Positions 10,264 through 51,303 of a stretch of DNA of 64,000 nt are shown here, piece by piece. The position numbers and the translations under genes are program-made. The notes beneath the pieces were generated by a model. The model was not told the DNA's origin. It did not search any database and saw only the letters and a list, made by a program, of their open reading frames with translations. Position 1 is the first letter of the stretch. The number at the start of each line of letters is the position of its first letter. This DNA comes from a virus (lineage: Duplodnaviria > Heunggongvirae > Uroviricota > Caudoviricetes): the IMG/VR virus record IMGVR_UViG_2671180724_000008; one strand, 5' to 3'.

Positions 10264-10339
10264 GATGGTGTAGCTCAGCGGTAGAGCAGTTGGCTGTTAA
10301 CCAACTGGTCGGTGGTTCGAATCCACCCACCATCGCCAA
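10264..10339 (+). tRNA. tRNA-Asn (anticodon GUU)
   Basis: Cloverleaf by hand: acceptor GATGGTG/CACCATC, anticodon stem GTTGG/CCAAC with loop CTGTTAA, T-arm GGTGG-TTCGAAT-CCACC, 3' CCA. Confidence 0.8.
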
Positions 10340-10343
10340 TTTA

Positions 10344-10430
10344 GGGGAGTTAGTCCGTAGAGGTAGCGGTGTAGACTGTAAATCTACTGTCATTGCGACT
10401 CGGGTGGTTCGACTCCATCACTCCCCACCA
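10344..10430 (+). tRNA. tRNA-Tyr (anticodon GUA), long variable arm
   Basis: Acceptor GGGGAGT/ACTCCCC, anticodon stem GTAGA/TCTAC with loop CTGTAAA, T-loop TTCGACT, 3' CCA. Confidence 0.7.
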
Positions 10431-10434
10431 AATT

Positions 10435-10510
10435 GCCGGTTTAGCTCAGTTGGTAGAGCGCCTGCCTTGTAAGCAGGATGTCAGCGGTTCGTGTCCGTTA
10501 ACCGGCACCA
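10435..10510 (+). tRNA. tRNA-Thr (anticodon UGU)
   Basis: Acceptor GCCGGTT/AACCGGC, D-arm GCTC-AGTTGGTA-GAGC, anticodon loop CTTGTAA, T-arm AGCGG-TTCGTGT-CCGTT, 3' CCA. Confidence 0.8.
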
Positions 10511-31496: not shown

Positions 31497-32029
31497 ACCG
31501 CTGACAGCATACACAATCAACTACCGCTGATAGCATATCGAGAGTCTATCTTACCGCTCACAGCATACTTTACTCGATTTTTTACCGCTGACAGCATACT
31601 TAAGACATTGCATGAATAATGTGTACCGGTATGGGTATAACCAGAACAAAATTACCGCTGGCAGCATACGAAGGTCTGACATATACCATTAATTACCGCT
31701 GATAGCATATCCAAACAAAAATTCCTCAATAAAACACCGCTGACAGCATACGTTCTATCAGGGAGCAGCAGGCAATAAATGCCTTTCACTACAAGCAATC
31801 AGCGCAATAGCAATAGAATGTTAGTGAGCGCAAACCTATATGGAATGCACTCTTCGAGGTTAGTAACCACTGGGGAGGTATGACAGAGCATTGAGTGGTG
31901 ATAGATGATTTACCGCTCACAGCATACGTTCATCTCACTATACCGCTGGTAGCATATCTTTAACCGTTCACAGCATACTTTTCAGAAAAATAGCCGCTGA
32001 TAGCATACATTTCACCGCTGACAGCATAT
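31497..32029. repeat. Iteron array downstream of repA (incA-like): about 12 copies of 17-bp TACCGCTGACAGCATAC in two clusters
   Basis: Direct imperfect repeats at roughly 31497, 31522, 31553, 31583, 31653, 31694, 31735, 31911, 31941, 31962, 31991, 32013; irregular spacing. Confidence 0.85.
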
Positions 32030-33123
32030 CAAAGCAGTTTGAGACTATTGGAAAGGATCTCAATCATCTTGATATTTTCAGGCGTCAAATTCTGCGAAAG
32101 TTCGGTTATCTTGTTGATAATGTTCTGTTTAGCATCAATTTCCCCGGCTTTCTCATCTGGTTTTTTGGGTTCGATGTCTTCAGGTTTTGGCGGTGCGACT
32201 TTAAGTTTTGGATTACGGCTGTGAATCTGGATATAGATCGACCGCCCTCGCTTAATCTCGCTGTATTCGAGATAGCCCAAATCTTGGAGAGCTTTTAAGC
32301 CGTTACGTATAGTCTGATTCTGCGAGCTGACATTCCTGCTACTCAAATTGAGTCGCGCACGCAATCGAGCAAGCGATACCGGCGCAGGCTTGGTTGGAAG
32401 ACTTTCGATGAAGGTGTACAGAGCCTGTGCTGTTTCTTTGCGTGGTAGCTTATTGATAACCTTTAACTGCAAAAGAACCTTATGGTCAAAGCGATATAGT
32501 TCGGCCAGCTTCGGTTCTGCATAGAACACCACCGTATCTTTCTGCTCGTTGTAGTCCACGCTATTGATGAGGTGCACCATCAGAAGCGAGATCTTGTTAG
32601 AGCCGTCGACGTTCTTTTCTTCATACGTTCTCTGGAAAGACAGAGTTGTACGCATGATCTTCAAAAGACTGTTTGTAAGCCGGTCGCGGAGTGTTTTGCG
32701 GATCTGTGACGATGGATAGCCACAAAACTTCGCAAATTTCGTGATGCTTAACTCGACACGACCGTTAGGTTCGCCGTATTCTGCCAGCGAACGCACAACG
32801 CCCACCCACGTTTTGAAATCATGATCCATGTCGAGACGAGGACCGGTTATCTTGATGTCGGAATAGCCTTCAGAACGGGCTACTTCGAGCTGAACAAGCT
32901 CCTTTGAAGCATCGATTTCATTTGGCTTGTTACGCTTGCTGTATTTTGTCCCCTTGAGCGTGGGCACGAACAACCCCAGCCGCATCAACGCAATTGGTTG
33001 GACTGTATTGTTGCTATTAGGGACAAGTTCCCCTGTGTACAATTCAAGGGAACCTTCTTCAAAGTTGTCGAGATTATCTTCTACTTCTTTGTTATTTTTA
33101 CCTTTTTTATTTTTTGTGGACAT
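32029..33123 (-). CDS. repA: Plasmid replication initiator RepA (P1/RepFIB-type)
   Basis: Iteron arrays on both sides; motifs NSNNTVQPIALMRLG, ITGPRLDMD, ALYTFIESLP, HSRNPKLK resemble P1 RepA as recalled; start placed at 33123 so the gene does not overlap upstream iterons. Confidence 0.85.
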   Translation of the reverse strand: MSTKNKKGKNNKEVEDNLDNFEEGSLELYTGELVPNSNNTVQPIALMRLGLFVPTLKGTKYSKRNKPNEIDASKELVQLEVARSEGYSDIKITGPRLDMDHDFKTWVGVVRSLAEYGEPNGRVELSITKFAKFCGYPSSQIRKTLRDRLTNSLLKIMRTTLSFQRTYEEKNVDGSNKISLLMVHLINSVDYNEQKDTVVFYAEPKLAELYRFDHKVLLQLKVINKLPRKETAQALYTFIESLPTKPAPVSLARLRARLNLSSRNVSSQNQTIRNGLKALQDLGYLEYSEIKRGRSIYIQIHSRNPKLKVAPPKPEDIEPKKPDEKAGEIDAKQNIINKITELSQNLTPENIKMIEILSNSLKLL

Positions 33124-33141
33124 GTGGACACCTTTGTCATT

Positions 33142-33245
33142 CAACCGCTGACAGCATACTTGATTTGCCGCTGGCAGCATACAAAAAACAGTTGGCAGCA
33201 TACGGCGAACCGTTGACAGACTATCAATTACCGCTGACAGCATAC
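33142..33245. repeat. Iteron array upstream of repA (origin/incC-like): about 5 copies
   Basis: Copies at about 33142, 33166, 33190, 33209, 33229, between repA start and GATC cluster. Confidence 0.8.
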
Positions 33246-48477: not shown

Positions 48478-49071
48478 ATGATTGCAGCCGAAAAAATCAA
48501 ACAGCGAAAGCGCGACAACTCTCTTCGTGACCTCTGGAGAACACCTGATTGGCTGTTTTCTGCCATTCAACGTTATCTTGGAGTGACATTTGATGTTGAC
48601 GTTGCCTGCAACAAGGACAATGCAAAGCTGCCTAATTTCATAGGCATTGAGCGTGATGCTTTGAAATCTGAATGGGGACAGCCAGGTACAATTGCCTTCC
48701 TCAATCCACCCTACTCCAAAATCTCCCCCTGGATTGATGCGGCTATACGTGAGCAGGCTCGCGGAGTTACAACAGTGATGCTAATTCCTCAATCCCTCGA
48801 TACAAAGTGGTATGAGCGTGCAACAGAGTATGCGAATGAGACGATTATTCTGTCTGGTGGCCGCGTAGCGTTTGTCGAGCCTGACGTCAATTTGGGTCAG
48901 GTAGAAGTAAACATCAACCCCGGTGGCAGTATGCTCGTTGTTTTTCGAGGATTCTGTCAGGACGCTGGGCACTCTATAAGCAAGATCCCTTTGGACGTCA
49001 TGAAAAGTCTGGGAGGGTATGATCCTGCGAATGTGGTCAGGAAAAAAAGACCATCAAAGAAGGCTGCTTAG
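48478..49071 (+). CDS. Phage-type DNA N6-adenine methyltransferase (Dam family)
   Basis: WRTPDWLF, FDVDVA and NPPYS motifs. Confidence 0.8.
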   Translation: MIAAEKIKQRKRDNSLRDLWRTPDWLFSAIQRYLGVTFDVDVACNKDNAKLPNFIGIERDALKSEWGQPGTIAFLNPPYSKISPWIDAAIREQARGVTTVMLIPQSLDTKWYERATEYANETIILSGGRVAFVEPDVNLGQVEVNINPGGSMLVVFRGFCQDAGHSISKIPLDVMKSLGGYDPANVVRKKRPSKKAA

Positions 49072-49094
49072 TTTGTTCTGGCGAGTGTAATTAA

Positions 49095-49153
49095 CCTGCT
49101 TCTGTAAATAAATAACTACATATTAATTATTAATATACGGAAGCAGGCTGTTT
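49095..49153. repeat. Long hairpin element (CCTGCTTCTGTA, AT-rich loop, TACGGAAGCAGG); second copy of the 2401-2458 element
   Basis: Near-identical 12-bp stems. Confidence 0.5.
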
Positions 49154-49256
49154 TGTATCAGAGACTCCCAGACCTGAACACCACTACAGAATCCACTAGA
49201 ACCCCTTCTCAGACGCTTTAAAATCGATTTTATGAACCACTTTAAGGAAAACTAAC

Positions 49257-49487
49257 ATGTCATACCCGACCAATGTTGTTGCGCTCGTAGAGAGCGATTT
49301 TCTGGCTAAGGCTCGTGAAATGATGAAAGATCGCGAGCAGGCTTTCAACTTGTACGAATGGGCAATTAAGTGCTTGCATCTTGGGGAGCATCGCGAACTT
49401 GTTGAACAGCTTTTAGGTGAGTTGATCAACGAGGTGTTTGCCTTGAATGTTCAACTACATGGTCGAGAAAATAATCAATCGAAATGA
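49257..49487 (+). CDS. Small hypothetical protein
   Basis: 76-aa ORF. Confidence 0.4.
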   Translation: MSYPTNVVALVESDFLAKAREMMKDREQAFNLYEWAIKCLHLGEHRELVEQLLGELINEVFALNVQLHGRENNQSK

Positions 49488-50069
49488 TAGATAAGTACAA
49501 ACTATTCATAAGATGAATTGTAAGTGCTAAGATCTGATAGTTTCCAGTCATAGACTGGAGACTCGACCTGATGGGTGGGGGTAAGCGTCACTGGCGTCAG
49601 GTTTAAAAAAGCTCACTACCAGCGTAGAACCGGTGCCGTTTAGGTGTCGGGGAAGGGGGAACCAAAGTGAGCAGAGACAAGGGTCACTTTATGATTGTCG
49701 AGTCTGGGGTGTTTCGAGAGGTTGAATCCAGTACTCCCCTTCATAAAGTGTGGGAAGATCTCGGTTCTGGGGTGCTGTCATCCATAACTTCCCAAGTCTA
49801 AGCTGGCAGTAGACTTAGACCATAGCTTTTCAGGTTATGAAACGACCAGGTTGGTGAGGAATTTTATACTCACCTCCCTGGGAGAGTATTACCTGAAAAG
49901 ACAACCTCTCACTTCGTTCGAGGTGAACTTCACTCACTTCGTTCGTTCAGTTCAGGTTTATAAAAACCTGTACTGGGAAGTAATTTGTTTATTTTAATAA
50001 TTATTACACGCACGCGTGTGCGCACGCGCGAGGAAAAAAATAGGCGCGGCGCTTGATTCAGGAGTTTAT
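49488..50069. other. ORF-free structured region (about 0.57 kb) upstream of rnhA with hairpins, short direct repeats and a 25-nt alternating purine-pyrimidine tract
   Basis: No plus-strand ORF of 60 aa or more; hairpin CCAGTC-ata-GACTGG; repeats CACTTCGTTCG x2 and TCTGGGGTG x2; tract ACACGCACGCGTGTGCGCACGCGCG at about 50008-50032. Confidence 0.5.
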
Positions 50070-50660
50070 ATGACGTCGAAGACACCAGCCCGGTCGCAAG
50101 CAAAAACTCGCAAAAAAGACAAAAACAAAAATTCTCCCCGCACCAATCCCACAACGCCTGTCGTAGAGTTCAATCCCCAGCTTAAAACCGTGAAAATCTT
50201 CAGTGATGGCTCTTGCCTTAAAAATCCGGGTGGCCCGGGCGGTTACGGTATAGTTCTCCAGTATCGTGGTGAGGAACGCGAGTTCTCAGATGGTTTTCAT
50301 AGCACCACCAATAACCGCATGGAGATGATGGGGGCACTTATCGGGCTGGAGCGTTTGAAATATCCATGCAACGTTATTTTGCACTCTGATAGCCAGTATC
50401 TGAAAAACGGCATGACACAGTGGATGAAATGGTGGAAACGCAATGGATGGATGACTTCTGACAAAAAACCGGTAAAGAATGTTGATCTGTGGAAGCGTCT
50501 GGATGAGGCCGCAAGTCGACATAATGTTCGCTGGAAGTGGGTTAAAGGTCACGCCGGGCATCGTGAAAATGAAATATGTGATCGACTCGCGAAGATCGCA
50601 GCTTTTTCAGCAGCAGATATGCCTCACAAGAAAGATATTGGTTTTGTTTATAACAATTAG
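50070..50660 (+). CDS. rnhA: Ribonuclease HI with basic N-terminal extension
   Basis: Near-colinear match to E. coli RnhA motifs [35 protein letters not shown]; start set at 50070 (AGGAG RBS). Confidence 0.9.
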
Positions 50661-50808
50661 TAAGTAAGTATTTACCTATTATTTTAAATCATGTATCTTA
50701 TCGGCGTCAGGATGACAATGTGTCGGTAAGACACAGTTCCAGGATGGAACGAGAAAGGCGGCTGGCAATCGCCAGCCGCAACTCTTTCTGACACTGGATG
50801 GAGTCCAC

Positions 50809-51303
50809 ATGGCACGTCAAACCTATTTCACTTCTGCAACTAAACGTCCTCGTTCTTTACGTCAAATTTTGGCCGAATTATTTAGCGGTCGTGTTATGTC
50901 ACGTCTTGATGAACTAGAGACTACCGTTCGGTTGCTGAATGAACGTTTAGATAATCAAGCGTCAGTTGTTGCGAACGTGGGGGCGATTGTTGCCTCTGGT
51001 TCTTCACGCGAAGCGAAAAATGCACGGCCTTTAGTGAAGGAGAAAAACAACAAGGACAGTTCGAATGGAAAATTTTCAAAGAAAGAGGCTGAAACCAATG
51101 GCCTACGTTCTCATTATAGTTTCACTGGCGACGGTAGCAGTTCCAGCCGGTCAGAGCCTTTTGATGCCGGATTCATCCATCACCACACCTTCGTCGACGA
51201 CAATTACCACCACTCCAGTGGAGCGTCCTGTCACTCTGGATGGGATGGCGGTGGATGCGATACCTCAAGTTCATCCAGTTACTCAGGATCATGCTGTGAC
51301 TAA
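50809..51303 (+). CDS. Hypothetical protein; C-terminal half overlaps an alternative-frame TM ORF, so gene model uncertain
   Basis: Coiled-coil N-terminus then Ser/Gly/His/Cys-rich tail; alternative frame 51098-51316 encodes TM helix plus Thr/Pro-rich tail. Confidence 0.3.
   Translation: MARQTYFTSATKRPRSLRQILAELFSGRVMSRLDELETTVRLLNERLDNQASVVANVGAIVASGSSREAKNARPLVKEKNNKDSSNGKFSKKEAETNGLRSHYSFTGDGSSSSRSEPFDAGFIHHHTFVDDNYHHSSGASCHSGWDGGGCDTSSSSSYSGSCCD

Follow-up and report, generated by a model that had tools for sequence, protein, structure and literature searches.

A previously unannotated structured noncoding RNA family in SSU5-like phage-plasmids, most likely acting in trans

The 64,000-nucleotide (nt) stretch of viral DNA analysed here (the window; IMG/VR record IMGVR_UViG_2671180724_000008) comes from an SSU5-like phage-plasmid, and directly upstream of the RNase HI gene rnhA, at 49488-50069, it carries a region free of open reading frames (ORFs). 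Very probably, a real structured noncoding RNA (ncRNA) gene lies here. We regard it as a previously unannotated family of structured ncRNAs in SSU5-like phage-plasmids, most likely acting in trans; the fuller statement, that it is a stand-alone ~450-nt RNA of the + strand which acts in trans and serves the lysogenic programme, we put a little above even. What characterizes a stand-alone ncRNA gene is present at this locus, namely its own promoter, a discrete transcript and a covarying structure, with the 3′ end and terminator left undefined.

E. coli plasmid NZ_CP048306.1 matches the RNA segment at 100% identity. A 751-nt query around the region matched Escherichia phages CMS-2020a, PhiR41_1 (deposited with host E. 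coli K-12 MG1655) and Cyrano at 96–98%, and Salmonella phage SSU5 and Klebsiella phages at 87–90%; PLSDB types the relatives as IncFIB. The locus is embedded among co-oriented genes for nucleotide metabolism and replication, including ribonucleotide reductase, thymidylate synthase, a DnaQ-like exonuclease, a Dam-type methylase and RNase HI. A first-pass annotation, made from the sequence alone, had described the 49488-50069 interval as lacking any plausible ORF, and the bounds are exact: the ORF of a 76-amino-acid (aa) protein ends at 49487, and rnhA starts with its ATG at 50070. The longest + strand ORF within it has 48 aa, one 74-aa antisense ORF overlaps the rnhA start, and none is conserved among clades.

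The region is better conserved than the genes around it. Its core, ~49562 to ~49984, is 88–92% identical across genera by blastn; for the genes on either side, DNA identity between the window and its Salmonella, Klebsiella and Enterobacter relatives is 68–79%. In a six-genome alignment, column identity in the core reaches 0.88–0.98, the highest of the locus, against ~0.8 in the genes and 0.63–0.69 around the alternating purine-pyrimidine tract that the first-pass annotation had placed in its headline. Since conservation peaks in the core and falls at the tract, the core is the object of interest. An adjacent 269-aa protein is merely 52–60% identical, and the main clade is fixed at almost all positions of the RNA's 3′ 300 nt. 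Between clades, substitutions fall about equally on the three phases (19/19/15, 53/61/57 and 53/53/48), with a third-position excess in the 76-aa gene, the methylase gene and rnhA (for example 27/15/101). Short ORFs in the region shift in place and frame from clade to clade: Cyrano's CYRAN_81, an annotated 44-aa ORF, has its frame shifted in Salmonella Newport and in Klebsiella (relatives' loci L006 and L007), and its GUG start is absent from L159 and L160. The flat period-3 counts and the non-conserved ORFs exclude a coding gene or pseudogene, so the decayed gene once offered as an option is rejected, the region also being better conserved than its coding neighbours. Comparative alignment likewise turned up no intact protein-coding gene in homologues that carry the RNA, and the block is conserved.

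Hairpins had been noted in the first pass, and the + strand indeed folds strongly, with a minimum free energy (MFE) of -172.6 kcal/mol (z = -5.25 against dinucleotide shuffles), 31 kcal/mol lower than the - strand (-141.6). An alignment of 59 distinct sequences drawn from 143 homologous loci (A3) gave 133 pairs in RNAalifold, almost none of them broken; 99.8% of cells were paired, and 138 cells had changed on both sides against 36 ± 7 after shuffling (0/500), with pairing dropping to 36–48% when partners were slid. Because variation in A3 is mostly in the 5′ third, remoter relatives were sought through the 269-aa protein and its contigs. This yielded divergent clades at 85% (L161), 74% (L159) and 69% (L160, L162 and L167), together with a Raoultella locus (L158) that blastn could not align. 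Twelve sequences representing at least five clades were aligned with MAFFT on sequence alone (A5). Across 93 curated pairs, 90.7% of cells were canonical; 38 of the 93 had changed on both sides (18.9 ± 2.5 in shuffles, 0/500), and the covariation score was 0.316 against at most 0.107 in slid controls. An independent RNAalifold run on the central domain found compensation in 15 of 25 pairs, and the helix 49751-49757:49788-49794 runs through GGGAAG:CUUCCC, GGAAGG:CCUUCC and GGGGGA:UCUCCC across clades. A covariance model of this domain (CM R1) detected exactly one copy in the window, at 170 bits, and scored 94–163 bits in the divergent clades. Of the 1876 canonical cells, 254 are G-U pairs, which would become A-C mismatches on the opposite strand; the RNA is therefore assigned to the + strand. 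Two further pairings were rejected. For the invariant 3′ CUGGGAAGU with ACUUCCCA, the 5′ partner GGGAAG covaries with CUUCCC and the 3′ motif does not, and a long-range helix ACUUC:GAAGU proposed by RNAalifold was without support.

The RNA has a host-type (sigma-70) promoter of its own, with an extended -10, from which it is transcribed. The spacer between the -35 and -10 elements is 17 nt in every clade, TAnnnT is present in every clade, and the TGn extension is found in all but the Klebsiella clade (TTG-TAGAAT); a consensus scanner missed the promoter because the -35 is weak. From its position 7 nt past the -10, the 5′ end is inferred to lie at ~49539-49541. The 3′ end is placed just past an invariant CUGGGAAGUAA, at ~49984-50000, also by inference, as no canonical U-tract terminator follows.

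Published transcript data, one of the checks proposed with the first-pass annotation, show a high transcript level at this spot. E. coli LF82 carries the phage-plasmid Cyrano (97% identical), and its RNA sequencing (RNA-seq) data were re-analysed by Misson et al. (PMC9928086). CYRAN_81, a 135-nt pseudo-ORF inside the RNA, is given there at 12-fold and the repressor at 10-fold (PMC9928086). Over five conditions and 10 samples, CYRAN_81 reads 6.8/6.9, 9.3/9.0, 6.9/6.9, 9.0/8.2 and 10.35/10.3 in log2(fpkm+5), where fpkm is fragments per kilobase per million (PMC9928086 S1 Table); the upstream gene CYRAN_80 reads 3.1–5.8 and rnhA 2.6–5.0, and the repressor CYRAN_45 reads 6.4–10.35 with a similar profile over conditions (PMC9928086). 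The RNA stands 12–40x above both neighbours in all 10 samples and is therefore an independent transcription unit in lysogens. That its lysogen level is comparable to the repressor gene, with the flanking lytic-module genes silent, is directly supported by these values.

The structured-RNA option of the first-pass annotation is thus the one backed by covariation, a conserved promoter and published transcripts. The parts of the gene and its immediate surroundings, by window position and strand, are the following.

49486-49507, no strand: degenerate copy GATAGATAAGTACAAACTATTC of a 22-bp palindrome (consensus GATAGGTAAGTACTTACCTATC), abutting or overlapping the -35 of the RNA promoter
49505-49510, +: -35-like hexamer TTCATA (TTTACC or TTTAAA in relatives), its position kept in all clades
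49525-49533, +: extended -10, TGcTAAGAT, with T..TA..AT invariant in alignments A1 and A3
49540-49990, +: ncRNA of ~450 nt, on the evidence of conservation, covariation, MFE (z = -5.25) and RNA-seq of the embedded CYRAN_81
49540-49562, +: 5′-terminal hairpin, hypervariable in sequence but always a hairpin, with at least five different stems
49565-49603, +: long hairpin H2, with conserved G-rich GGGUGGRGG and CUGG; 15 pairs, eight with two-sided changes, 94.9% paired
49611-49616 with 49667-49672, +: helix H3, CUCAC:GUGAG, becoming CCUGU:GCAGG in L159 and L160
49630-49650, +: variable hairpin H4, its pairs varying among GC, GU and AU
49673-49822, +: central domain of four helices (H8, H11, H12 and H13), from covariation and CM R1
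49685-49694 with 49741-49750, +: H8
49751-49757 with 49788-49794, +: H11, 100% paired, 4/7 pairs compensated
49770-49774 with 49779-49783, +: H12
49796-49805 with 49810-49820, +: H13, 100% paired, 8/10 pairs compensated
49821-49839, +: competing hairpin CAUAGCU:GGUUAUG, with compensating changes read from alignment strings
49826-49839 with 49887-49900, +: long arm H14 (arm 49826-49900), from covariation, enclosing H15
49846-49858 with 49869-49881, +: hairpin H15
49905-49945, +: repeat module, copies of CACUUCGUUCG at 49910 and 49935 flanking the complementary CGAGGUGA (49919-49926)
49947-49983, +: 3′-terminal hairpin UCAG...CUGG with an inner variable hairpin and the invariant CUGGGAAGUAA (49973-49983)
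49984-50004, no strand: AT-rich spacer, ~20–60 nt and variable, AT-rich in most relatives and less so in L159
50005-50030, no strand: alternating (CA/CG)n tract, hairpin-capable, of uncertain membership in the RNA unit
50030-50040, +: polypurine run GAGGAAAAAAA, kept in rnhA-bearing clades and in Enterobacter pEH4236

Several of these elements show how structure is kept while sequence changes. In the 5′ hairpin, a stabilising feature as in many stable RNAs, the A3 pairs 22:43 (CG, UA, AU, UG) and 25:40 (CG, UA, UG, GC) vary together, as does 29:38. H3 (49611-49672) encloses a conserved ACCAGCG, hairpin H4 and the purine-rich GGGGAAGGGGGAACC. The 3′ hairpin has UA at A3 pair 446:455 in 52 sequences and GC in 7, and its size varies in L158-L160. 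Both direct repeats listed in the first pass are present, CACTTCGTTCG exactly twice (49910, 49935) and TCTGGGGTG twice (49703, 49766); the latter is not kept in divergent relatives. In the repeat module, CGAGGUGA can pair with either CACUUCGUUCG copy, with three compensated pairs in A5; the first CACUUCGUUCG copy can also form the loop of a CCUC...GAGG hairpin, which is CACC:GGUG in L158. The two pairings of CGAGGUGA, and H14 against CAUAGCU:GGUUAUG, make two mutually exclusive helix pairs, each with some compensating changes, which suggests conformational switching. A T-loop-like decamer, GGTTGAATCC, does occur once, at 49720, as had been reported, but it diverges in distant relatives. A T-loop or tRNA-like reading was rejected, as the decamer becomes GGTTGTGTTC in L006, GTTTGTTACC in L161 and GGTGTAGTCT in L159; in the window, the Rfam tRNA model matches at 10.2-10.5 kb only.

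The first-pass annotation had linked the region to RNase H. In E. coli, Salmonella and most Klebsiella elements rnhA does lie directly 3′ of the RNA, and it is the commonest downstream gene. Elsewhere the position is taken by betT (Enterobacter pEH4236, L008), by Tad2-like genes (L159, L160 and L167), by a gene without known identity (L158) or, in a Buttiauxella plasmid (L169), by an opposite-strand OLD-TOPRIM/UvrD (Gabija-like) pair, with just the first rnhA codons left. Because the downstream gene varies, the RNA is not tied to RNase H and instead marks the fixed left edge of a slot for cargo exchange. A long cis-acting leader, acting as an attenuator, a riboswitch-like switch or a processive antiterminator of read-through into rnhA or other cargo, would explain why the RNA and rnhA share an orientation with no canonical terminator between them, and a switch of this kind could draw on the two mutually exclusive helix pairs, which have some covariation support. 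We nevertheless consider it improbable. The gene to be controlled is not constant, and in Buttiauxella and in L173/L174-type loci it lies on the opposite strand; L158-L160 have 250–300 nt more, with a palindromic motif of their own, before the next gene; rnhA stays 12–40x below the RNA in all 10 RNA-seq samples, at background in LF82; and the RNA is more conserved than any gene under its possible control.

The DNA on the right-hand side of the RNA is a hotspot of cargo replacement, occupied by rnhA, Tad2-like genes (anti-Thoeris family), betT plus DUF2254, OLD-TOPRIM/UvrD or a type I restriction subunit (window 50070-51300; L008 from 3765; L159 from 8377; L160 from 8735; L167 from 6191; L169 5639-7849; L170 from 4649). 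Clades that lack rnhA have an extra conserved noncoding block of ~250 nt after the RNA (L158 7830-8025; L159 8215-8376; L160 8585-8734), in which the palindromic motif recurs and two GC-rich hairpins (e.g. GCCTCAAGGAAGAGGC, CGGCCGGGTTTACCGGCCG) come just before the next gene.

The alternating tract ACACGCACGCGTGTGCGCACGCGCG was found at 50006-50030, ending 39 nt 5′ of the rnhA ATG. The full run has 26 nt (50005-50030) and is the sole alternating run of at least 16 nt in 64 kb; as a (CG/CA)n run of more than 12 bp it may be Z-DNA-prone. As a headline the tract stands in its uniqueness within the window and falls in its location, outside the RNA core, and in its variable length and sequence among relatives; it is an adjacent element at most. 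It was also flagged as terminator-like on the - strand. A reading in which the whole block is a DNA element or remnant, be it a decayed gene, a recombination or attachment site, an array of protein-binding sites, or a Z-DNA or cruciform regulator of rnhA built on the tract, could appeal to this statistically exceptional run with its conserved CGCGCGAGG end, to the palindromic, protein-site-like motif just upstream and to the border that the block forms with the gene-replacement region. It is very improbable indeed, given compensatory changes that pass through G-U intermediates on one strand only, a conserved promoter with high transcription, no codon periodicity, and a tract that is among the least conserved parts and half gone in pHCM2.

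What follows the RNA keeps a more specific rival under discussion. An AT-rich spacer, a (CA/CG)n tract ending in CGCGCGAGG (conserved even without rnhA) and a polypurine GAGGAAAAAAA succeed one another, an order partly kept in rnhA-less clades and the single observation on which an R-loop or primer model survives. In that model the RNA would be the primer of a transcription-activated origin, like ColE1 RNA II or T4 ori(uvsY): the transcript would enter the AT-rich spacer and form a persistent RNA-DNA hybrid over the G/purine-rich CGCGCGAGGAAAAAAA, and RNase HI, adjacent or from the host, would trim it to a 3′-OH primer. The size of ~450 nt and the own promoter resemble RNA II, the RNA sits in a nucleotide-metabolism and replication module with rnhA as its commonest neighbour, and it is expressed in the plasmid state, where Cyrano is kept at ~5.5 copies per cell (PMC9928086). 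A Rep3-type initiator replicon (Rep3_N, 32029-33243), however, lies 16 kb away, there is neither an antisense RNA I-like family nor a conserved antisense promoter, the linkage to rnhA is not conserved and transcripts of the rnhA region are at background, the 76-aa neighbour is not Rop-like, and Moellerella relatives do without the element. Cumulative GC skew does not inflect here, but this counts for little, since with all genes co-oriented the origin test is uninformative. On balance we think the primer model unlikely.

The RNA itself is widespread among related elements and appears to be new to annotation. It occurs in 687 of 72,556 PLSDB plasmids (Klebsiella, Escherichia, Enterobacter, Salmonella, Citrobacter, Cronobacter, Shigella, Kluyvera and Raoultella), in 12 deposited phages, in ~75 IMG/VR contigs and in 232 of 5426 complete E. 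coli genomes, where RefSeq annotates nothing under it in 233 E. coli records; there is one copy per element. A scan of genome contigs for homologues gave two Kluyvera loci only, and among remoter homologues the Pseudomonas nickie-like phages have no gap at the locus. The Infernal/Rfam scan proposed with the first-pass annotation matched no family here: at gathering thresholds, Rfam 15 found just three tRNAs at 10.2-10.5 kb in the whole window, and a permissive scan of 49000-50300 gave chance miRNA-type matches only (E of at least 0.25). None of the 4227 families matches, among them tmRNA, RNase P, 6S, group I and II introns, GOLLD, ROOL, HEARO, OLE, C4 and RNAI, and the divergent homologues L158-L161 have no Rfam match either. 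Literature searches on ncRNA of SSU5, pHCM2 and pKPHS1 found no description. The three tRNA genes (Asn-GTT, Tyr-GTA and Thr-TGT; 10264-10510) lie ~39 kb from the RNA.

Some existing gene calls at the locus are probably wrong. CYRAN_81 (L003 3268-3402) and a second 74-aa call in L158 (7211-7435), which corresponds to the 5′ domain of the RNA, lie inside the RNA, and small coding sequences in L002 belong to the same group. SSU5 rnhA (SSU5_090; L001 4525-4680) is probably annotated ~155 nt too long, overlapping the RNA 3′ end, and the rnhA annotation of pFF979_1 seems ~70 nt too short.

Action in trans is suggested by the inconstant downstream gene, the lack of a detectable antisense target in the 64 kb and the nearly fixed 3′ 300 nt, and this last point hints at tertiary structure or protein contacts, not simple helices. 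On the present evidence the RNA begins with a stabilising 5′ hairpin and ends at the 3′ hairpin; as we picture it, it would act as a folded molecule, for example as a scaffold or decoy for protein binding or by way of its tertiary structure. Because its expression tracks the repressor and the integrase, it may serve the prophage-plasmid state, in maintaining lysogeny, in immunity or in dealing with host or competitor systems. Rather than being an rnhA leader, it would be the conserved left boundary of a slot where accessory genes for defence and anti-defence replace one another.

Several points weigh against this picture. No function, partner or target was found: within the window there are no antisense targets or paralogues, and no significant complementarity elsewhere in it (best 11–12 nt, E = 1.4). 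The strandedness of the published RNA-seq is not stated (PMC9928086), and the transcript ends are deduced, no canonical intrinsic terminator having been called on the + strand. The mutually exclusive helices could mean a switch, a behaviour seen more often in cis-regulators, and the high identity in the main clade could partly stem from recombinational spread and not from constraint. A Moellerella phage-plasmid lacks the RNA and has in its place a genuine 113-aa gene and a subunit of type I restriction, and a Klebsiella sub-lineage of ~30 plasmids has a different element at the same place, both with the syntenic 76-aa protein; since these relatives go without it, this RNA is not indispensable for the lifestyle.

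The element in that Klebsiella sub-lineage deserves separate mention. These ~30 phage-plasmids (FF979-type) carry at the same syntenic position a different ORF-free element of ~570 nt (L171 2729-3300, pFF979_1; also L172, L173 and L174), which has no blastn match to the RNA described here and no covariance-model match even with filters off. It folds with z = -6.3, is present in 30 plasmids at 83–100% with no annotation and a varying downstream gene, and shows 16 compensated pairs among only four sequences. From these sequence features it is a candidate for a second structured RNA in the slot, and were one slot to hold two unrelated structured RNAs, this would speak for a need for an RNA at that very place. 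This replacement in a sister lineage, along with dormant-state expression and the fixed border of the cargo slot, can be cited for a bolder and more doubtful proposal, to which we give about one chance in four: that the RNA is the founding member of a new class of large structured RNAs, core to a phage-plasmid lineage widespread in the clinic, and that the slot itself is functional or else an R-loop origin with a primer that the adjacent RNase HI matures. In the first case the 'RNA slot' would be a functional unit, for instance of RNA-based immunity, exclusion or anti-defence; in the second, primer maturation would proceed via the conserved polypurine run.

Other features surround the gene. 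The 76-aa protein (49257-49487), always encoded just upstream of the RNA, is 82–87% identical at the aa level across genera, far above its neighbours; it is confined to these phage-plasmids, is found in synteny in 728 plasmids, and is predicted to form three helices (predicted local distance difference test score, pLDDT, 79) with no fold match in the PDB. Further upstream, between the methylase gene and the 76-aa gene, a long inverted repeat at 49086-49152 (CCTGCTTC...GAAGCAGG, 0.87 identity) with an AT-rich interior, followed by CTGTTTTGT, probably serves as a terminator or a processing hairpin and accounts for the chance miRNA-type Rfam matches. The 22-bp palindrome directly precedes + strand genes in 13 or more intergenic gaps and looks like a dispersed phage operator or promoter element. 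Its core, GTAAGTANTTAC, has 46 matches in the window against 13.7 expected, a count reached in 0 of 100 shuffles, and the copy at the -35 of the RNA promoter, degenerate in E. coli, is near-perfect in SSU5/Salmonella and Klebsiella relatives. Copies of the palindrome (~16–22 bp) are at these window positions.

44, 2544, 9496, 14911, 17567, 23150, 26668: palindrome copies
34216, 38900, 43612, 48451, 49486, 50664, 54715: palindrome copies, continued

SSU5-like phage-plasmids are common in clinical Enterobacteriaceae and, according to published work, carry resistance and toxin genes. In their control of lysogeny, copy number and competition, an RNA as abundant in lysogens as the repressor transcript is an obvious missing player. 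Our findings enlarge by one well-supported family the small set of large ncRNAs of bacteria and phages that have no assigned function, correct annotations such as CYRAN_81 and the SSU5_090 start, and flag a hotspot of cargo exchange.

Comparison with known systems places this RNA near several classes without assigning it to one. ColE1 RNA II is a structured pre-primer of ~550 nt with its own promoter, reading towards the origin. Like it, the RNA described here is a structured transcript of ~0.5 kb with a sigma-70 promoter of its own, an RNase HI gene adjacent in most relatives, a gene for a small helical protein upstream and purine-rich or A-run sequence downstream. Unlike ColE1, where an antisense RNA I over the 5′ end sets the copy number and no plasmid-encoded initiator protein is needed, it has no RNA I (RF00106) match and no antisense promoter, the only - strand promoter-like site (49546-49517) being in the non-conserved 5′ hairpin and pointing away from the RNA; a Rep3 initiator replicon is located elsewhere, and the adjacency of rnhA is not conserved. 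A ColE1-like trio of Rop-like protein, RNA II and RNase H was rejected, as the 76-aa model matched no PDB fold at E <6 and did not match Rop.

The c4 RNA of P1/P7, the CI RNA of P4 and the CA RNA of N15 also come from lysogenic prophage-plasmids at levels that track the immunity genes, but they are processed RNAs of ~70–90 nt, antisense to a nearby target, and the ~450-nt RNA found here neither matches Rfam C4 nor has a complementary target that could be detected in the window. In its proposed mode, as a stable, structured, trans-acting RNA whose whole fold is functional, it would be like 6S and CsrB/CsrC, to which it has no similarity in sequence or structure. The idea of a CsrA sponge was dropped, with ~7 GGA motifs in 450 nt by hand count, roughly the number expected by chance. 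GOLLD and ROOL differ in that their covariance models do not match; this RNA is smaller, limited to SSU5-like phage-plasmids of Enterobacteriaceae, ~39 kb away from the tRNA cluster instead of beside it, and expressed in the lysogenic state. Yet like GOLLD and ROOL, whose function is likewise unassigned, it is a stand-alone gene of a phage or prophage, hundreds of nt long, folded into many helices and unusually conserved in sequence.

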